Source of the DNA: an uncultured Chloroflexia bacterium
GTDB lineage: Bacteria; Chloroflexota; Anaerolineae; JAAYZQ01
Length of the DNA stretch: 64,000 bases
Reading direction: 5' to 3'
NCBI GenBank assembly: GCA_963700285.1
Contig: CAVOXA010000010.1
Location: forward strand, 672,001-736,000
Shown: positions 19,311 through 29,066 of the stretch, one piece after another
Position numbering within the stretch: the first letter of the stretch is position 1
How the letters are laid out: each line of letters begins with the position of its first letter
Notes under the pieces: model-generated
What the model was told of the DNA's origin: nothing
The model's database searches: none
What the model saw: the letters and a program-made list of their open reading frames with translations, nothing else
Program-made: the position numbers and the translations under genes

Positions 19311-20345
19311 ATGAAGGTGACTGTATTATCGGGCGTCGAAAAGCTGACGATTGAAGACAGGCCGATCCCCAGCATTGGCCCAGGCGAGGCGCTTGTGAAA
19401 GTAGAGGCATGTGGCATCTGCGGCACGGATGTGCACGCCTATCTGAGCGGCAGCCTCTACCCTCTCGGTACGGTGATGGGGCACGAACCAACTGGAACCC
19501 TGATCGACGTTGGATCAGAGGTAGAGGGTTTTCAGCCGGGAGACCACGTCGCCCTGTACGGCCTTGCCGCCTGTGGCACATGCCCTGCCTGCAGGCGCGG
19601 GCTGGACTACTACTGTACCAACAAAACGGAGTTGGGCAGTAGCAACCAACTGGATGGCGCCTATGCCGAGTACGTCAGGATCCCCTACGCTGATAGGATG
19701 CTGGTCAAGATGCCGGACCAACTTACATTCGAGGAAGCCGCATTGGCCGATCCTCTTGCCACATCACTGCACGCGATCCGTTGCTCACGCTTCAAGCCAG
19801 GCGACACGGTGGCGGTGCTTGGCGCCGGACCCATCGGCCTGTTGGCTGTCCAATTGCTCAAGATCAGCGGCGCCAGCCTGGTCATTTGCACCGAGGTCTC
19901 GCCGCAGCGGTCAACCATTGCCAAGGAGCTAGGAGCTGACTGCGTCTTGAATCCTGTCGAGGAGGGCGAAGCATTGACCACTCGAGTTGCAGAGATGACG
20001 GGTGGGATGGGCGTCGATATCGCCTTTGAGTGCGCCGGTATGCCAGCCGCCTTCCGACAGTCATTCGATGTTGTCCGGCCGGGTGGGCAGGTGATGGCTG
20101 TGGGTGTGATCGAACAGGAAACCCCTGTGAATCCCTTGGGCATCGTGATCAAGGAGATCGATCTAAGGGGCTCACTGGCGTGCAACAAGTACGAACTTGA
20201 ACTAGCCGTCGGATTGCTTGCTCAGGGAAAGGTGAATACCGAGCTAATGCTCTCGGACACCATCTCCCTGGATGATATCGAGGCGCGAGGCTTCAGACGG
20301 CTGTTATCATCTCCTGAGGTGGTCAAGATCCTGGTCAAGCCCTGA
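19311..20345 (+). CDS. zinc-dependent MDR alcohol dehydrogenase (sorbitol/threonine/butanediol DH-like)
   Basis: CGICGTD, GHE, CxxCxxC-x7-C structural Zn site, GAGPIG. Confidence 0.93.
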   Translation: MKVTVLSGVEKLTIEDRPIPSIGPGEALVKVEACGICGTDVHAYLSGSLYPLGTVMGHEPTGTLIDVGSEVEGFQPGDHVALYGLAACGTCPACRRGLDYYCTNKTELGSSNQLDGAYAEYVRIPYADRMLVKMPDQLTFEEAALADPLATSLHAIRCSRFKPGDTVAVLGAGPIGLLAVQLLKISGASLVICTEVSPQRSTIAKELGADCVLNPVEEGEALTTRVAEMTGGMGVDIAFECAGMPAAFRQSFDVVRPGGQVMAVGVIEQETPVNPLGIVIKEIDLRGSLACNKYELELAVGLLAQGKVNTELMLSDTISLDDIEARGFRRLLSSPEVVKILVKP

Positions 20346-20450
20346 GTGGGGAGAACTACAGAGACACCGAGGGTTCTGGAGCAAGGGCTTGCGGGTGCTG
20401 TGTTCTCTAACTCTGTGTCTCCGAGGATCCGTGTCCGGAGCTGGTTTCCC

Positions 20451-21032
20451 TCAGGCTCTGACCTCATCCGCGCAGAGCTTCTGACCCAGAGCATAGGCTT
20501 GGGCGATAATCTCCGCGTTCTCCTGTATATCGCCAGCAGCGTCGGCGCTGCCGTAGACCATGTCCACGATCTCAGCGCCCACATACCTGTAGGCATCCTG
20601 AAAGGTCCTGAACGCATTCACGGCGCCAGAATCGAAGGGGTCCGAGTCTCCGTAGGTCATGACGATTCCGATCTTTTTGCCTCTCAGGAGGTAGCCGTCA
20701 GCATCGACCAGGGCGTAGCAGCGATCCATGAACAGCTTGGTCTGGGCCGAAACCGTGAACCAATAGACGGGGCTGACAATCACGATAGCATCGGCATCCA
20801 GGATCCTCGGATAGAGCAACTGCATGTCATCCGAGACAACACAGCCTCCAAAGGGCTCCGTGTGACAGGCATCACAGGCGTCGCAGGGACTGATATCCAT
20901 GCCATGGAGGTAGAAGCTTTCGACATAGGCCCCGGCGGCTTTGGCACCTTCGGCCACCTTGTCCGCCAGGATGGCACTGTTGCCTTTCTCCCTGGGACTT
21001 CCCTTGACAATGACGATCCTTTTGCTTGCCAT
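20451..21032 (-). CDS. iron-sulfur flavoprotein (Isf / multimeric flavodoxin family)
   Basis: GSPR..GNS, CDACDAC...C, SPVYW, K.FMDR. Confidence 0.88.
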   Translation of the reverse strand: MASKRIVIVKGSPREKGNSAILADKVAEGAKAAGAYVESFYLHGMDISPCDACDACHTEPFGGCVVSDDMQLLYPRILDADAIVIVSPVYWFTVSAQTKLFMDRCYALVDADGYLLRGKKIGIVMTYGDSDPFDSGAVNAFRTFQDAYRYVGAEIVDMVYGSADAAGDIQENAEIIAQAYALGQKLCADEVRA

Positions 21033-21150
21033 ATAAACCTCCGCGTCAGTCTTGTTCACGCGCATCCGTTAGGCCAAATGTCCAGCCCGGATTCTGTACT
21101 GCCTGATTGTACCATCAGTCATCCAGGGAGCCAAACAGGGCCAGGCCAGG

Positions 21151-21594
21151 CTACTTTGCCTGCAGGCCAGGTTCGTAGACAAGGATGGCATCTCGCCAAG
21201 CGCCGGGCATGGGGATCGAGCCTTGTTGGGTATAGTCATAGCAGACCTGAATGGTCTTTCCGGTAGCAATCTCGCCACCCTCGGTTTCCAATACATACGC
21301 AAAGTGAAAGCTCTTGTTGCCCAGGTAACTGACACGCACCCAGACGGTCACTGTCTGTCCCAGATAAGCAGACGCTTTGTAGCTGCAGGAAGCATCCGCC
21401 ACGATCATGCCAATTGACTCAAAATCGTTGTCCTGCCACAAGCCTGCCTCGCGCAGGTACCTTACGCGGGCGTGTTCCATGAAGGTGAAATAGGCCACAT
21501 TATTGAGATGGCGCTGGGCATCGATGTCGGCGTAGCGGATGGGAATATCCACAGAACAACGGAATTGTTGGCGATCATACTCGTTGTCGGGCAT
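21151..21594 (-). CDS. hot-dog acyl-CoA thioesterase (YbgC/FadM-like)
   Basis: IRYADIDAQRHLNNVAY..FMEHAR. Confidence 0.9.
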   Translation of the reverse strand: MPDNEYDRQQFRCSVDIPIRYADIDAQRHLNNVAYFTFMEHARVRYLREAGLWQDNDFESIGMIVADASCSYKASAYLGQTVTVWVRVSYLGNKSFHFAYVLETEGGEIATGKTIQVCYDYTQQGSIPMPGAWRDAILVYEPGLQAK

Positions 21595-21633
21595 TCATGC
21601 ACCTCCCAAAGCCCTGCCTGGCATGGATTGCTG

Positions 21634-22974
21634 CTAGGCGAGATCGTGTTTCTGGCAAAAGTCCTCGAGCACTTGTTCCAGGTCTGGCCGGCCGATCTCC
21701 TGCAGGTTGTAGTACACACGGGTTGACGGCTTGTCGATGTTGATAATGCGGCTCAGGTCAATGGGCGTACCGATAACTACGGCATCGCACTCGGTGGCGT
21801 TGATGGTTGCCTCCAGATCCCTGAGCTGCTGCTCGCCGTAGCCCATGGCCGGAAGCAGGACGCCGATGTTGGGGTAGGTCTCAAAGGTTTCCTTCAACCT
21901 GCCCACCGTATAGGGTCGCGGATCTACAAAGCCGGCCGCGCCAAACTTTTGGGCGGCAACCATGCCAGCCCCGAACTGCATTTCGCCATGGGTCAGGGTT
22001 GGCCCATCCTCGACCACAAGGACCTGCTTGCCTTTCACTACCGAGGGATCGTCCATGTCCAGCGTCGAGGCGGCATCCACCACGATGGCATCGGGATTCA
22101 CGGCGGCGATATTCTTGCGTACGGCGTCAATGCCGGCACGATCGGCGCTGTCCATCTTGTTGATGACCACCACGTCAGCCATGCGCAAGGTAATCTCACC
22201 GGGATAATAGGTCAGCTCGTGTCCGGGTCGGTGGGGATCGACAACGGTGACGTGCAGATCTGACTTGTAGAAAGGAAAGTCGTTGTTGCCGCCGTCCCAA
22301 ACGATTACGTCACAGCCGTCGGGATCGTTCTCCGCAGCCCGCAGGATGGCTTCATAGTCGACACCAGCGTAAATTACGTTGCCCCGCACGACGTGCGGCT
22401 CATACTCTTCCATCTCTTCGATGGTGCAATGGTGCCTGTCCAGATCCTCGATGGTGGCAAAACGCTGTACGCGCTGGGCAACCAAGTCACCGTAAGGCAT
22501 AGGGTGGCGGATAGCTACCACGTTAAGCCCCTTTGCCATCAGGAGTTCGATGATGCGGCGCGATGTCTGGCTCTTGCCGCTTCCTGTGCGCACAGCCCCC
22601 ACCGAGACGACCGGTTTTGTGCTTTCGATCTGGGTGTCCTTGGGCCCGAGCAGCAAGAAACTGGCGCCGGCTGCCTGGGCAATGGCGTTGACGGCCATCA
22701 CGTGCTGGTAGGGGATGTCGCTGTAGGAAAAGACACACTCGTCCACGTCAAGGTCTTGGATCAATTGTGGCAGGCTAGCTTCGGCGTGGATAGGGATGCC
22801 CTCTGGGTAGACCTTACCCGCCAGTTCCGGTGGATAGCGCCGGCCTTCGATGTCGGGGATCTGAGCCGCCGTGAAAGCCACAACGTTGTAGGCATTGTTG
22901 TCCCTGTAGTAGGTGTTAAAGTTATGAAAGTCCCGTCCAGCCGCGCCAAGAATGATGATATTTCTCTTGTCCAT
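21634..22974 (-). CDS. arcE: ArcE-type arginine synthetase (COG2403; often annotated as GTPase or cyclic 2,3-diphosphoglycerate synthase-like)
   Basis: IILGAAGRDFHNFN, AVRTGSGKSQTSR P-loop, RHPMPYGDL, TIEE.EEYEP, WDGGNND, VEDGPTLTHG, LPAMGYG; start re-called at 22974 after GAGGAG. Confidence 0.8.
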   Translation of the reverse strand: MDKRNIIILGAAGRDFHNFNTYYRDNNAYNVVAFTAAQIPDIEGRRYPPELAGKVYPEGIPIHAEASLPQLIQDLDVDECVFSYSDIPYQHVMAVNAIAQAAGASFLLLGPKDTQIESTKPVVSVGAVRTGSGKSQTSRRIIELLMAKGLNVVAIRHPMPYGDLVAQRVQRFATIEDLDRHHCTIEEMEEYEPHVVRGNVIYAGVDYEAILRAAENDPDGCDVIVWDGGNNDFPFYKSDLHVTVVDPHRPGHELTYYPGEITLRMADVVVINKMDSADRAGIDAVRKNIAAVNPDAIVVDAASTLDMDDPSVVKGKQVLVVEDGPTLTHGEMQFGAGMVAAQKFGAAGFVDPRPYTVGRLKETFETYPNIGVLLPAMGYGEQQLRDLEATINATECDAVVIGTPIDLSRIINIDKPSTRVYYNLQEIGRPDLEQVLEDFCQKHDLA

Positions 22975-23047
22975 GTTCTCCTCTGCTTTGTCGAATTGGG
23001 GCCGCTCTGAGGAACCTGCGCCCCCAGCCAGATTTTCAGTTGAGCTT

Positions 23048-24190
23048 TTAGTAGCCCGGAAGCTGCTTGGGAAAGTAATCCTCCAGTATCCCCTCTCGGT
23101 AGACATCGGCCGTAGCGCAATGCAGGCCGCCGCCAAAGGCTCCCACATCCCAGAAGGGCACTGGGATGACCTCAAAACCTAGCTTGTCAAACTGCTCCAT
23201 CTGCGCTGTCTCGCTGGCTTCCACGCAGATGGTATTGGGATCGAGCATGAGGGTGTTCATCGATAGCCAGACACTGCAGTAACAGAGCGGCGGTTTCTTG
23301 TCAAGCGCAGGGGCTGCGCACTCGACAATCTCCCAATCGTTCTTTCTGAACAATTCTACCATCTCGTCGTAGAGCGGGGCGCGCTCGCGGTTGCTGAGGG
23401 CCAGTCCAGGCCGCAACAGCACAAAAGTCGCGTCAATATGTGTGGGATCGGGCTCACGGAATAGCACCTCGTGGATGCGGTGATTGGGAAAGTGACGGCG
23501 CAGCCATTCGATGCCTGCCGCGTTTGTGGTCAGGGATCGTTGGGCAAAAAGGTCCTTGCCGGCGCGCCCCACGTCAGCCGCGTCGAAGAGGGGTTCTTTT
23601 TCAGTGAGTGCCCACGATTTTTTGCAGGTATAGTCTCTTATCTGCTCTTCCGCTATCTTGGTCTCGAACTCTTGCCAAAAACCGAGGTTGTAGGAAGCGT
23701 CGCTCAGCCGGGGCTTGGGAGCCGATTCCCATCGAAAGTTAGGGTCCTCATCATAGTACTGCTGAAGGAGCGGCCGGTAGCAGAGGTATTCGAACCAACG
23801 GCTGCGGTAGGACATGGTTGCTTCCAAGATTTCGTTGCCCACCGTGAGCAATACGTCCCGGGGCGGCATACAGCCGCTCATCGAGTCCTGGACCCAGTCC
23901 GGGGTCTGTACTTTCTGACTGAAATCCAGCGGCGTGGGCCGGTCCACCCGGATCCCACGTTTCTGCAGCAAGGCTGCAAAGTTGTCCATCTGCTCATTGG
24001 CCCTATCTTCCATTTCCTGGGGCAGCAATCCATAGGTACCCAGGGGAAAGCCGTATTCGGGCCAGTCACGCTGAACCGCGGGCTCGGGCGCCTGGACCAT
24101 CGCCCCCGTAGCCACGCCGATAATGACGTGCTTGAGGGGGTCCCATTCGTTCCAAGAGTTCACCACTGTCGGGTTCTTTTCGGTTTTCAA
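23048..24190 (-). CDS. amidinotransferase (AGAT/StrB-like, pentein fold)
   Basis: NSWNEWDPLK, PPRD, RSRWFEY, FDAAD, HIDAT, GGGLHCAT (Asp-His-Cys triad); TTG start after GGAGG. Confidence 0.9.
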   Translation of the reverse strand: MKTEKNPTVVNSWNEWDPLKHVIIGVATGAMVQAPEPAVQRDWPEYGFPLGTYGLLPQEMEDRANEQMDNFAALLQKRGIRVDRPTPLDFSQKVQTPDWVQDSMSGCMPPRDVLLTVGNEILEATMSYRSRWFEYLCYRPLLQQYYDEDPNFRWESAPKPRLSDASYNLGFWQEFETKIAEEQIRDYTCKKSWALTEKEPLFDAADVGRAGKDLFAQRSLTTNAAGIEWLRRHFPNHRIHEVLFREPDPTHIDATFVLLRPGLALSNRERAPLYDEMVELFRKNDWEIVECAAPALDKKPPLCYCSVWLSMNTLMLDPNTICVEASETAQMEQFDKLGFEVIPVPFWDVGAFGGGLHCATADVYREGILEDYFPKQLPGY

Positions 24191-24258
24191 GCTATCCTCC
24201 CAGAAGGGCCAGAAAGATGGTGGGCGCCCCAGACCGGCACAAGATCCAATTGTTCCCT

Positions 24259-24423
24259 ATCATGGATCAAGTCACGCATCCTGTCAAGTACTGGATGGTA
24301 TCAGCTACTGTGCCAAAGGGGCCCAAGGGATCTTTTTTCCCTGCGGGCACGGAGAGGGGCTCGATCTTGTTTTCAGAAGTGACCGAACTGGGACTTGACA
24401 GCCTACCCCCTATGAGCGATACT
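24259..24423. promoter_or_regulatory. back-to-back sigma70-like promoters for the amidinotransferase and aminotransferase units
   Basis: Minus strand TTGACA (24287-24282)-17-CATGAT; plus strand TTGACA (24395-24400)-17-GATACT. Confidence 0.55.
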
Positions 24424-24566
24424 AGAGCAGCAGTGATTTGCTGGCTGTCCCTTGCACAGCCTGGAATGCGGAGTCCAAGAGATGTATTCTGTAGCGTTTC
24501 AGAGGCGTACGGGACTGCAATTGCAGATGCTGTCCCATCATTTGACCAAGTTGAGGAGGAGGAACG

Positions 24567-25836
24567 ATGAAGGATCCCAAGGAAAGTCTATGTCCTATCT
24601 TGAGCCACTACACGTCTATTGAGGTCGACCGGGGTGAGGGACCATACCTGTATGCGACCAATGGCCGTCGGTATCTGGATCTGACGACTGGCATCGGCGT
24701 AACCAACACCGGGCACTGCCATCCCCAAGTTGTGGCAGCCGCCCAGGCTCAGGTTGGCAAGCTGATCCATGGCCAGGCCAATATCGTCTACCACAAGCCG
24801 GCGTTAGAGCTGGTACAGGAGTTGCAGCAGATCCTGCCACCGCACCTGGATGGTTTCTTTTTCGCCAACTCCGGGGCGGAGGCCATCGAGGCAGCTATGA
24901 AACTGTCGCGACATGCCACGGGCCGGACCAATATGGTTGTCTTTCAGGGGGGATTCCACGGCAGGACCATCGGGTCCGTGTCTCTGACCACGTCGAATCC
25001 TATATACCATTACAAGTACCAACCTCTCATGTCGGGCGTGTACGTGGCGCCCTTTCCCTATAGCTATTACTATGGTTGGTCGGAGAAAGAGACTGAGGCC
25101 TTTTGTCTCAAGCAGTTGCGCCATTTGCTGGCCTCACAGACGGCGCCAGAAGAGACGGCAGCCATGCTCGTTGAGCCGGTGCTGGGCGAAGGCGGCTACG
25201 TCGTACCGACACCCGGCTTTCTTGCCAGCGTGCAGGGGATCTGCCGCGAGCACGGCATCCTGCTGATTGCGGATGAGGTTCAATCTGGATTCGGCCGTAC
25301 CGGAAAATGGTTCGCCCACCAGCACTTTGGGGTCGAGCCAGACATCGTAGTGATGGCCAAGGGTCTGGCCTCTGGTTTCCCGCTAAGCGGCATCGCGGCG
25401 CGGTCGGATCTGATGAGGCACTCGCCGGTCGGCTCCCAGGGAGGCACCTATGGCGGAAACGCGGTCGCCTGCGCGGCCGCGGTGGCGACCTTGCGCGTGT
25501 TGGGGGAGGAAGGCTTGATCGAGAACAGCGCAAGGATGGGAGCCAAGCTTGATGAATCAGCTCAAGGCGCTGCAGGAACAGTTTCCCGTCATTGGTGAGG
25601 TGCGCGGCCTTGGCCTGATGGTGGGCGTCGAGTTCACCTCGGCAGACGGCAGTCCGGATTCGGCAACGGCTAAAGCAGTGGTGAAAGTATGTCTGGATGA
25701 GGGTCTGATCTTGCTTACTTGCGGTACCTATGGCAACGTGATCCGCTGGATCCCGCCTCTGATTATCAATGATTCTCAACTGGATGAGGCATTGAGTATT
25801 TTCGCAGGGGCCCTGAATGCAGTCGTAGCCGTTTAG
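24567..25836 (+). CDS. class-III PLP aminotransferase (4-aminobutyrate aminotransferase-like), one frameshift at ~25549
   Basis: NSGAEAIE, GGFHGRT, EPVLGEGG, DEVQSGFGRTG, MAKG, GTYGGN; continues in another frame as EVRGLGLMVGVEF...NVIRWIPPL. Confidence 0.88.
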
Positions 25837-25959
25837 CCTGCGTCCTTTTGAGGTGATAGAACCTGGTGGGAGCACAGTGCGCGTCTTTCTCGTGCTCCCA
25901 TCGAGAGAACGCCGCTGGCCCAAGATCCAGAGGCGCCGCACTTGAGGTGAAATGGGACA

Positions 25960-27213
25960 TTGACGATATTCAATCTAGCCTACGGCGACACGCAATTGGA
26001 TGTAGATATGCCAAGCGCCAACGTGCTGGGGGTGCTTGAGCCCCTGAGCAGCGGACCACCGCGGGACGAAGCGGAAGTGGTGCGACTCGCTCTCGCTCAG
26101 CCCATCGGCTGCCCCTGTCTGCGGGATCTGGTGCGTGCTGGACAACGCGTGGCAGTCATTACCAGTGACCTGACGCGCCCCTGCCCGTCGGAACGGCTAC
26201 TTCCCTTCCTATTGGACGAGCTGGCAGAGGCTGGCATCCGGGATGAGGACATGACCATCGTCCTGGCCCTGGGCCTCCACAGGCCAATGACGGAGCCAGA
26301 GATTATGGCGGCAGTAGGACCGGCTGTCTACCAGCGCGTACGGGTGCTCAATCACGATCCGGCGGATGTCATCCGGCTGAGCATTACCTCACGGGGTACT
26401 CCTATCGATGTCTTTCGTGCGGTGGTGGAAGCCGATGTGCGCATCTGTGCTGGGAACCTGGAACTGCACTATTTTGCCGGCTACTCTGGCGGGGCCAAGG
26501 CGATTCTGCCTGGCTGCGCCTCCAAGGCGACGATCCAGGCAAATCACGCCATGATGGTCATGCCGGAGGCATGCGCCGGGCGTCTGGACGGTAACCCAGT
26601 TCGCGCGGATCTAGAAGAGGGGGCGGCGATGGTGGGGATAGACTTTATCCTCAACGTTGTGGTGGACAGCGAGCATCGCATCGTAGCCGCAGTTGCGGGC
26701 GAGGTGACTGCTGCCCACCGGCGGGGGTGTGAACTGGTGGCGGAGCAAGGGATTGTACCCGTGGCTGAGCTGGCTGACATCGTGCTGGCCAGCGCTGGCG
26801 GATTCCCAAAAGACGTGAACTTGTACCAGGCGCAGAAGGGGCTGGACAACGCGGCCCACGCCGTACGGCATGGGGGAGCCATCGTCCTGGTGGCGGAATG
26901 CCGCGAGGGCCTGGGTAATGCCACCTTTGAGGCCTGGTTGCGGGAGGCAAGCTCACCGGATGAAGTGCTGGAACGAATCCAGAAGGAGTTTGTCCTGGGT
27001 GGTCACAAGGCGGCGGCTGTAGCTTCCGTGCTGAAGAAGGCGGATGTCTGCTTGGTCTCCTCCATGCCGGCGGACTTGGTCAAAAGCTGTGGATTGATCT
27101 CCTTTGATGACGTCCATCAGGCCGTACGGTCCGTGCTTGACCGGCAGGGAGAATCTGCTCGTGTCCTTGTCATGCCACAAGCGGGATCTGTTTTGCCGGT
27201 TCAGACTGTCTAG
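25960..27213 (+). CDS. LarA-family nickel-pincer-dependent 2-hydroxy-acid racemase/epimerase
   Basis: DLTRP, ALGLH, HYFAGYSGGAK, NH, YQAQK motifs. Confidence 0.88.
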   Translation: MTIFNLAYGDTQLDVDMPSANVLGVLEPLSSGPPRDEAEVVRLALAQPIGCPCLRDLVRAGQRVAVITSDLTRPCPSERLLPFLLDELAEAGIRDEDMTIVLALGLHRPMTEPEIMAAVGPAVYQRVRVLNHDPADVIRLSITSRGTPIDVFRAVVEADVRICAGNLELHYFAGYSGGAKAILPGCASKATIQANHAMMVMPEACAGRLDGNPVRADLEEGAAMVGIDFILNVVVDSEHRIVAAVAGEVTAAHRRGCELVAEQGIVPVAELADIVLASAGGFPKDVNLYQAQKGLDNAAHAVRHGGAIVLVAECREGLGNATFEAWLREASSPDEVLERIQKEFVLGGHKAAAVASVLKKADVCLVSSMPADLVKSCGLISFDDVHQAVRSVLDRQGESARVLVMPQAGSVLPVQTV

Positions 27214-27281
27214 CAACGATGGGTTCTGGCTGAGTATGGCATGGACAGAGGCTGCACTTGTTGTCCGTCTTGCCCTTCCAT

Positions 27282-27310
27282 TTGACCGTGCCCAAGATTT
27301 GAGGTATAAT
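27282..27310 (+). promoter_or_regulatory. sigma70 promoter of tRNA-Pro
   Basis: TTGACC-17 bp-TATAAT. Confidence 0.75.
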
Positions 27311-27325
27311 CGTGAGTTGTAATGG

Positions 27326-27402
27326 CGGGGCGTAGCGCAGTCCGGTAGCGCACTTGAATGGGGTTCAAGTGGTCGCCCGTTCAAATCGGGCCGCCCCGAC
27401 CA
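27326..27402 (+). tRNA. tRNA-Pro(GGG)
   Basis: CGGGGCG/CGCCCCG acceptor stem, CTTGA-ATGGGGT-TCAAG anticodon arm, GTTCAAATC, encoded CCA. Confidence 0.95.
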
Positions 27403-27562
27403 CGAAGAAGATGGTCGATGGCGTGTTGCTGTCGGCCATTGCTTTATCCCGAGCACGGTCCCTCCGTGCCCTGCGAGTGGAGATAGCGTCGTCGAAGCAG
27501 AGATGCAGACAGCTTCGTCATGGACGAGACCTGGCTGGCGCTTTCTCGGAGTTGAGAAGCAG

Positions 27563-29066
27563 ATGGACAGCGTTGTTCATGCATGTGAGGATCTAACAGA
27601 AGAGGATATCGCGTTTCTGGAAGAGATCGAGGGGAACCTGGGCATCCTGGCTGACTCTGAGCCGGGCCGACGTCGCTCATGTATTGCCCTCTCGACGCTG
27701 AACGAGCGGTGGTGGTGGCCCAAGCCAGGCCTCACTCGATCCTGCCCATCTACAGCGAGTCGCTGGTTGGGCGGCAGGTAGGCTTTGCCGACGAGCCTGA
27801 CGTGATGCGGGCGCTGACGGAGGGCCGCCGGGGCTTCACCGAGGTTCGCCGTGGCGATGGCAGGCGGCAGTCTCCAGCCAAGGGAGCGCCTATCGTTCAG
27901 GAGACCTATCCGATCTGGGACGACGATGGGCAGGTGATTGCGGCGATCTGCATCGAGACGAACCTGATCGAGCGGGAGCGCCACCGGCGTCGCAGCAAGG
28001 TCTTTCAGCGAGCGCTGAAGCAGTTTCAGCGCGATGGTGTTGGCCGGGCAGTTGCAGGGCGCCGACCAATTGACGCCCTTTGCCGAGCACGATGGCGTCA
28101 TGGTCGTGGATGCCCAGCATCGCATCCAGTACGTCAGCGGCATTGCCACCAGCCTCTACCGCAAGCTGGGCTACGTCGGCGACCTGCTGAAGCGGCACAT
28201 CGAGGATCTGGAACTGGATGATCAGCAGCCTGGTCCTCGAGGCCCTGGAACAGGGCGACTGCTATCGAGCGCGAGATACAGGTCGGCGATCTGGTCTGGG
28301 TCAAGAAGGCGATCCCCTGTTTGCTCCCGCGCAAGGGGCTGCGCCGGCTGCTCACGCCAGGCGATAGGCGCCCTGGCGGCTGGAGGGCGCTCTGGTGACC
28401 ATCCACGACGAGACCGACGCCCGCCGCCAGGAGGAGGAGCTCCAGGTCAAGGTGGCCATGATCCAGGAGATCCATCACCGGGTCAAGAACAACATGCAGA
28501 CCATCGCCTCGCTGCTGCGGCTCCAGTCGCGCCGGGCCGAGTCGGAAGAGGTCCGGCGGGCGCTGCAGGAGGGCATCAACCGCATCCTGAGCGTGGCCGT
28601 GATCCACGAGTTCCTGGCCCACCAGGATGCCCGGGTCATCAACATCCGGGATGTGAGCCAGCGGATCATCAACCAGATCCGGGAAGGGGTGCTGGATCAG
28701 GAGAGGGGGATCCGCCTGGACTTGCGCGGTCCCAACATCTACCTGCCCACCCAGCCAGCCACCGTCTGCGCTCTGGTGATCAACGAGTTGCTGCAGAATG
28801 CGCTGGAGCATGGCTACGAGCGCCAGGAAGGTGGTACCGTCACCGTCAACCTGCAGGACGATGGCGAGCAGATCACCATCTCGGTGGACGACGATGGAGT
28901 GGGGCTGCCAGAGGACTTTGACCTGGCACAGACCAGCAGCCTGGGCCTGCAGATCGTCCAGACCCTGGCCGAAGGTGATCTCAAAGGCAGTTTTGAGCTT
29001 CACGGCAGGGACAAGGGCGTCTCGGCTGTCGTAACGTTCCCCAAACACAGCCAAGGAGGTAAGTAA
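27563..29066 (+). CDS. PdtaS/EutW-like cytoplasmic sensor histidine kinase (GAF-like, PAS, HisKA_2, HATPase), multiply frameshifted
   Basis: ILADLSRAD N-terminal motif across shifts, DGVMVVD PAS, EIHHRVKNN H-box, NELLQNALEH, DDDGVGLP, SLGLQIV; at least 6 indels between 27650 and 28400. Confidence 0.82.

Follow-up and report, generated by a model that had tools for sequence, protein, structure and literature searches.

A recurrent amidinotransferase-arcE gene pair as a candidate energy-conserving route for guanidino compounds in anaerobic bacteria

What does an amidinotransferase gene do beside a gene for an arginine synthetase-like enzyme? The question is raised by a locus in a stretch of 64,000 nucleotides (the window) from an uncultured Chloroflexia bacterium. 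On the minus strand of this window, the gene of an amidinotransferase with the AGAT/StrB1 fold (23048..24190; 380 amino acids, aa) is followed by the gene of a COG2403 P-loop enzyme that is likely an ArcE-type arginine synthetase (21634..22974; 446 aa). A sequence-only reading had described an intact AGAT-like gene 73 bp upstream of a co-oriented COG2403 gene, and had proposed that the two enzymes shuttle the amidino group of guanidino compounds through ornithine with conservation of ATP. The layout was as described. The amidinotransferase starts with TTG at 24190 behind GGAGGA, stops at 23048 and has the motifs FDAAD, HID and GGLHC; the COG2403 open reading frame (ORF) starts with ATG at 22974 behind GAGGAG, stops at 21634 and has the motifs GAAGRDFHNFN, RTGSGKSQT and DGGNND. 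Both frames are open. The sequence of the 73-bp spacer (22975..23047, minus strand) carries the arcE ribosome-binding site, and a pattern scan found no terminator-like site on its minus strand.

We examined how often the two genes occur together. GTDB genomes yielded 586 amidinotransferase loci. Of the best 80, 10 had arcE downstream on the same strand, in the orders amidinotransferase-arcE (five loci), amidinotransferase-arcB-arcE (two), amidinotransferase-arcB-arcC-arcE (two) and amidinotransferase-creatininase-arcB-arcE (one). Paired loci were seen in Anaerolineales, Chloroflexia, Desulfosarcina and a further deltaproteobacterium, Acidimicrobiia, Holophagae and Saprospiraceae. Forty-nine of the genomes behind the 80 loci were searched whole; 26 had an ArcE, and 21 had a copy 74-82% identical to the window ArcE. 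An amidinotransferase lay within 10 kb of the close ArcE in 18 of these 21 genomes, eight of them being a copy other than the one first found. In 300 other genomes of the host class, which served as a control, a close ArcE was present in six and a close amidinotransferase in five, plus one remnant, with an overlap of four; in G261 and G284 a close arcE stood with arcB, and an amidinotransferase was not found. The control of 250 genomes from the phylum of G302 gave no amidinotransferase, no close ArcE and 53 distant ArcE. Given the recurrence across genomes and these class and phylum controls, we rejected chance adjacency. The pairing is not chance and recurs in several bacterial phyla, often with arcB and arcC.

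The phylogeny of ArcE (138 sequences) pointed the same way. An amidinotransferase was nearby for 20 of the 43 members of the window's clade (support 0.93), as compared with 2 of the 95 sequences outside it, the clade having been collected partly through the amidinotransferase. For the metagenome loci alone, the amidinotransferase stood beside arcE in 3 of 17 inside the clade and 1 of 63 outside. The clade also includes members of arcB-arcC-arcE clusters. ArcE was found in 238 of 301 genomes of the host class, mostly 60-66% identical among those listed, and a single tblastn match in the host genome represents the only arcE copy found there. Within the class, ArcE-like genes are near-universal and usually have housekeeping neighbours; the host genome holds only the mobile-clade copy.

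By sequence and structure model, the upstream protein is an amidinotransferase of the AGAT/StrB1 type, and amidino transfer is its predicted activity. A phmmer comparison with human AGAT gave an E-value of 1e-84, and the structure model (predicted local distance difference test 93.7) had a Foldseek template-modelling (TM) score of 0.88 to AGAT 4jdw. TM scores were 0.81-0.88 to seven transferase entries versus 0.54-0.60 to ADI/DDAH; the five-fold beta-beta-alpha-beta propeller is thus closer to transferases than to deiminases. Asp203, His251 and Cys358 aligned with Asp254, His303 and Cys407, the catalytic residues of human AGAT (PMC3684758), and were invariant in 48 aligned relatives. The equivalents of Asp170, Asp305, Arg322 and Ser355 of AGAT are also kept. 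Arg322 and Ser355 correspond to Arg270 and Ser306, which we take to bind arginine or ornithine. The flap has Asp248 and Thr250 in place of human Asn300 and Met302, which have been connected with the choice of acceptor (PMC4887976), and thereby departs from the flap of EC 2.1.4.1. CyrA likewise lacks Asn300 and Met302 yet uses glycine (PMC3684758), so the flap change leaves glycine possible as an acceptor. The reverse reaction, with ornithine as the acceptor, has been demonstrated for AmtA (PMC4887976). The family is large and unannotated, with 3173 matches at E <= 0.001.

The COG2403 protein is likely an ArcE-type arginine synthetase, judging from its fold, context, clade and conserved columns. 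ArcE of Thermococcus kodakarensis catalyses Arg + ADP + Pi <-> citrulline + NH3 + ATP; its fold was likened to LpxK 4EHY, its similarity to cyclic 2,3-diphosphoglycerate synthetase (cDPGS) is low, and homologs are known from Chloroflexi and Desulfosarcina (PMC11032458). Homologs of the T. kodakarensis protein, TK2200, were defined there by E < 1e-100 and a length of > 380 aa (PMC11032458 supplement). The fold of the window protein matched LpxK 4EHY (E 1e-6, TM 0.48/0.67). Its sequence matched cDPGS over only about 100-160 residues (E 1.7e-7), with no similarity over the full length, and the cDPGS structures 8ORK, 8ORU and 9SXB had 13-15% identity by fold and TM 0.42-0.47, yet the best Foldseek E-value. 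Because of the partial-length match and the low identity, we rejected the cDPGS label for this member of the same superfamily, in keeping with the ArcE assignment of the sequence-only reading. Databases name the relatives cDPGS, the ESM Atlas gives only 'putative GTPase' or cDPGS, and no NCBIfam model matched the protein. Sixty distant homologs share 172 conserved columns, of which the window protein keeps 162; changes on the branch include Arg188 to Met, His89 to Tyr and Asn262 to Thr.

Taken together, the two genes suggest a catabolic shuttle, a reading that we hold to be somewhat better supported than not. The amidinotransferase would convert guanidino-X and ornithine to amino-X and arginine, and ArcE would convert arginine to citrulline, ammonia and ATP. 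ArcB and ArcC would complete the breakdown with a second ATP, ornithine acting catalytically. The net reaction would be guanidino-X + 2 ADP + 2 Pi -> amino-X + 2 NH3 + CO2 + 2 ATP, a yield of up to two ATP. Since the tested ArcE was inactive on agmatine and guanidine (PMC11032458), the amidinotransferase would be needed as an adapter. Transamidination is presumably near equilibrium and would be pulled by the removal of arginine (PMC4887976 and general knowledge). Citrulline fits as the product because the cluster-linked ornithine carbamoyltransferases (OTCs) keep the ornithine-type motifs STRT, DxxxSMG and HCLP; the OTC of L018 was above the OTC cut-offs. The catabolic direction is favoured by the carbamate kinase, the importers and the degradative neighbours of the clusters, by the lack of phosphagen kinases and by the presence of argG and argH. 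Direction and donor are thus read from gene neighbours, and the activities are predictions from sequence.

We next considered the arginine and guanidino genes elsewhere in the host assembly (7.05 Mb, 89% complete, 6.5% contaminated). The scanned ORFs of the window locus included no importer, arcB or arcC. As had been supposed, an OTC and a carbamate kinase are encoded elsewhere: arcB (C1:203760-204731) and arcC (C1:205124-206029) were over cut-off and are unlinked to arcE. A second OTC lies on C22 in two frames. Genes argG and argH are present, which is a case in which ArcE is read as catabolic (PMC11032458); in this assembly both are split by frameshifts, as is the C22 OTC. The phosphagen kinase family (PF00217) had no match in the host assembly or in any of 30 related genomes, and we rejected phosphagen synthesis on this ground. 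Carbamate kinase occurred in 29 of the 30 related genomes, a count with no baseline frequency for comparison. No urease over cut-off was found in the host genome. A second, distant amidinotransferase (35%) lies at G000 C5:68534-70485 (L234), followed by a dimethylargininase-like gene.

The neighbours also bear on the donor. Three amidinotransferase subfamilies are linked to the one ArcE clade (tree of 103 sequences, arcE linkage scored within 7 kb): that of the window in 12 of 22 members, a Trp-flap subfamily in 4 of 13 and a divergent third one in 6 of 7. As to neighbours, 9 of 22 members of the window subfamily have a 4-aminobutyrate (GABA)-type or omega-aminotransferase, 5 of 13 Trp-flap members have a creatininase and 3 of 7 members of the divergent subfamily have a sodium symporter. 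The Trp-flap-linked creatininase matched 1J2T at E 4e-62, and the creatininase of L026 was over the TIGR04448 cut-off. Further neighbours comprised aldehyde:ferredoxin oxidoreductase, alanine dehydrogenase, polyamine and other ATP-binding cassette systems, energy-coupling factor transporters, agmatinase-family genes and glycine cleavage genes. At the window locus, a divergent class III omega-aminotransferase gene, GABA-aminotransferase-like by NCBIfam and Pfam (24567..25836, plus strand), is a likely member of the module. Its frame is broken by one extra base near 25550, which is absent from a contig of the sequencing run X1. The ortholog in the sister genome G263 is a single 422-aa frame whose best PDB matches are 4-aminobutyrate aminotransferases (E 1e-90), and a 60% ortholog lies within the amidinotransferase-arcB-arcE cluster L044. 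Because of this 4-aminobutyrate-type ortholog and the one in L044, our best guess for the donor of the window subfamily is an omega-guanidino acid, for example 4-guanidinobutyrate, or agmatine. Human GATM acts on GABA, beta-alanine and taurine (PMC9772407). Creatinine was not favoured as the donor of the window enzyme, since no TIGR04448 match over cut-off occurs in the genome and the creatininase-linked enzymes form another subfamily.

A broader scheme, to which we give slightly less than even credence, is a modular guanidino fermentation. Exchangeable amidinotransferases would load ornithine from different donors, and one mobile ArcE-ArcB-ArcC back end would yield two ATP from each. The donors would be omega-guanidino acids or agmatine here; for the Trp-flap subfamily linked to creatininase, they would be creatine or guanidinoacetate derived from creatinine-type rings. 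This scheme, if true, would be the first catabolic, energy-yielding use of amidinotransferases and could include an undescribed creatine:ornithine amidinotransferase. Separately, we observed tandem arrays of two to three divergent amidinotransferases by transporters or creatininase (L039:10013-13627, L056 and L226), which suggest a panel of donor specificities. The locus L052:10001-14679 has the order amidinotransferase, OTC, GABA-type aminotransferase and L-2-hydroxyglutarate oxidase, and this set hints at a five-carbon (5-aminovalerate/glutarate) donor series.

Several observations weigh against the shuttle. In the DNA covered, many contigs of which were short, 70 of the 80 amidinotransferase loci and 76 of the 80 loci of the metagenome ArcE survey had no partner. 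The family's closest amidinotransferase (79%), that of G048, lacks an arcE within 10 kb, and arcE was absent from all six Pelagibacteraceae and all five Vibrionaceae/Endozoicomonadaceae genomes searched, which represent the SAR11 and Photobacterium relatives. G263, of the same genus as the host, shares the whole neighbourhood at 88%, and about 830 bp are missing from the interior of its amidinotransferase gene, with arcE kept. An indel near codon 66 splits the frame of the G263 arcE, which relative to that of the window shows strong purifying selection (ratio of non-synonymous to synonymous rates, dN/dS, 0.06). The amidinotransferase is thus dispensable in the genus, where the module is an accessory one that may be disappearing. 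On the strength of the recurrence, the G263 deletion, G048 and the SAR11 and Photobacterium loci, we regard the link as real and old, as accessory in the genus, and the family as also used without ArcE. On the protein side, the likeness to TK2200 is drawn from the published description and not from the TK2200 sequence. At position 188 the window ArcE has Met, as against Arg in 59 of 60 distant ArcE, and the three branch changes named above are common to a sister group without the amidinotransferase. Moreover, the related genomes are mutual kin and several sets were selected through the amidinotransferase or arcE; the Fisher values for the pairing (7e-7, 0.03 and 3e-15) are overstated, as kin are non-independent and 14 deltaproteobacterial genomes were grouped by titles.

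The host also has cheaper routes open to it, because it carries two arcA genes, an agmatine deiminase-family gene and six ureohydrolase-family matches. One arcA belongs to an arcB-arcC-arcA cluster (C1:202070-207363) and the other lies at C1:191965-193227; neither this deiminase cluster nor the second arcA was found in G263. With one query, arcA was detected in 3 of the 30 related genomes and not in G263. Finding ArcA together with ArcE in one genome is rare. ArcE homologs cluster with arcB and arcC and mostly replace arcA (PMC11032458), a trend that the clade follows and to which the host is an exception. The shuttle as first read therefore retains its gene identities, its arcB and arcC, the recurrence and the catabolic neighbours; the absence of arcA that it expected was contradicted, and the amidinotransferase proved dispensable in the genus.

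Could the same gene set run backwards? In such a biosynthetic cycle, a guanidino metabolite (an osmolyte, a nitrogen store or a small natural product) would be made from arginine, and ArcB and ArcE would spend ATP to rebuild arginine out of the liberated ornithine. The gene set amidinotransferase-arcB-arcE is symmetric, ArcE is reversible and can make arginine from citrulline in vivo (PMC11032458), and the characterised bacterial amidinotransferases are biosynthetic (PMC2242806, PMC4887976). However, the clusters hold carbamate kinase, which in T. kodakarensis could not provide carbamoyl phosphate (PMC13260591), and their neighbours are importers and degradative enzymes instead of tailoring enzymes. 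The host has argG and argH already, phosphagen kinases are lacking as stated above, and the tandem arrays of divergent amidinotransferases would fit a donor panel better than a single product. We consider this cycle unlikely. Comparably unlikely, in our view, is that the pair is a relic in this lineage, with ArcE serving ordinary arginine catabolism in replacement of the usual copy of the class and the amidinotransferase inherited as a weak or inactive enzyme. The G263 deletion, the single arcE of a host from an ArcE-rich class, and the importer, arcB and arcC missing from the locus would all be explained; the missing importer also counts against the shuttle. So do three features of the amidinotransferase itself: in a residue survey, position 105 was Ser, as against Phe in 118 of 119 relatives, the protein departs at eight conserved columns (median four), and dN/dS against X1, a related strain, is about 0.23 over 162 codons, compared with the 0.06 of arcE against G263. 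Ser105 and the higher dN/dS also speak for the relic. The Ser105 codon is the same in an identical contig of run X2 and in X1. On the other hand, the five closest relatives depart at 7-12 conserved columns, the X1 gene is open and still under purifying selection (13 synonymous versus 11 non-synonymous changes among the 24 of 29 differences listed), and the frame, catalytic triad, ribosome-binding site and promoter-like site of the window gene are intact.

Less probable still is a role in salvage or hydrolysis, in which amidino groups are captured for arginine and nitrogen supply, or the donor is hydrolysed, and ArcE buffers the arginine pool. The arcE-free SAR11 and Photobacterium relatives, the hydrolysis of the donor seen in an AmtA variant (PMC4887976) and the near-equilibrium reaction of ArcE (PMC11032458) are in its favour, whereas the transferase fold and sequence, with TM 0.88 compared with 0.55-0.58 for deiminases, argue against a hydrolase, and complete breakdown is suggested by how tightly arcB and arcC are linked.

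The proposed catabolic shuttle resembles the ArcE-ArcB-ArcC pathway of T. kodakarensis (TK2200; PMC11032458, PMC13260591) in its COG2403 P-loop enzyme with an LpxK-like fold and low cDPGS similarity, in relatives clustered with arcB and arcC, and in two ATP per amidino group. It differs in the added amidinotransferase entry, by which the substrate would be a guanidino compound other than arginine and ornithine a recycled carrier; furthermore, the host has arcA, and its arcB and arcC are unlinked. AGAT/GATM (PDB 1JDW), bacterial AmtA, CyrA/AoaA, StrB1, HsvA and SxtG share the fold and the Asp-His-Cys triad with the window enzyme. Those enzymes are biosynthetic, whereas the family of the window enzyme occurs in catabolic clusters and the window enzyme has the Asp248/Thr250 flap. 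Arginine and agmatine deiminase pathways and the ureohydrolases (agmatinase, guanidinobutyrase and creatinase) also break down guanidino compounds, and the deiminase routes likewise end in a carbamoyltransferase and carbamate kinase. Ureohydrolases produce urea and no ATP, and deiminase routes yield a single ATP and call for a separate carbamoyltransferase per substrate. The shuttle would instead yield two ATP through one shared back end.

Urea is the usual breakdown product of guanidinoacetate, creatine and guanidinobutyrate (PMC12623156), and prokaryotic amidinotransferases have been treated as biosynthetic (PMC2242806). In the consulted portions of PMC11032458, text and supplement, an amidinotransferase is named only for creatine synthesis, and the pairing is not mentioned in those of PMC13763154, PMC12371840 and bioRxiv 10.1101/2024.12.10.627767. 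A catabolic amidinotransferase-ArcE pathway was not found in the literature searched, with subscription journals and bioRxiv supplements outside its scope, in line with the view of the sequence-only reading that the pairing is undescribed. On the present view, guanidino compounds beyond arginine and agmatine end up as urea with no gain of ATP. If the shuttle is real, anaerobes of several phyla would conserve two ATP per amidino group via one adapter enzyme, a large unannotated family would acquire a role, the widespread ArcE clade would be explained, and a new nitrogen-cycling route would exist in anoxic habitats.

The remaining features of the locus were as follows. A pattern scan predicted a sigma-70 promoter of the amidinotransferase-arcE pair at 24259..24287 (minus strand, TTGACA-17-CATGAT) and one of the divergent aminotransferase at 24395..24423 (plus strand), both by consensus match only. 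Four promoter-like sites stood against 2.3 +/- 1.3 in shuffles, which makes the sigma-70 call for the pair weak alone; the hexamers at 24287-24259 are identical in G263. Rfam gave only a tRNA on window positions 20000-28000, and no riboswitch was found there or in eight related loci. A 4HBT-type thioesterase gene by Pfam (21151..21594, minus strand), co-oriented and 39 bp past arcE, adjoins arcE only in the host genome and G263 among the loci compared and is probably a passenger. Beyond the aminotransferase lie a LarAH6-family nickel-dependent malate racemase with a score over cut-off (25960-27213) and the tRNA gene (27326-27399). As had been noted from the sequence, nonribosomal peptide synthetase, polyketide synthase and aminoglycoside genes were not nearby; Pfam detected none among 41 (7 + 34) window ORFs, and we rejected a secondary-metabolite cluster in the window.

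The nearest named relatives are Anaerolineae proteins, and we take the host to belong to this class. Sequencing runs cover small shares of the window, and we infer no habitat from them. In X1, about 93-95% alike, contigs span both genes and their junction with no listed indel in either gene. One RNA run gave short contigs only; a 238-base contig was identical within arcE and is not evidence of a transcript.

Relatives of the amidinotransferase also occur in other settings. In SAR11 (L068:8772-12159) and other Pelagibacteraceae loci (L066-L095), a creatinase homolog (E 3e-160 to 1CHM) directly precedes a 60% relative, and in many of these SAR11 loci a threonine-aldolase-family gene is next; such loci could be a glycine/sarcosine-scavenging block. 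In Parendozoicomonas (L058:5803-11140), glycine/sarcosine/betaine reductase genes and a sodium symporter lie beside the amidinotransferase. In Photobacterium and Vibrio (L045, L046, L049 and L060-L064), its neighbours are EamA, a sodium symporter and an AraC regulator.

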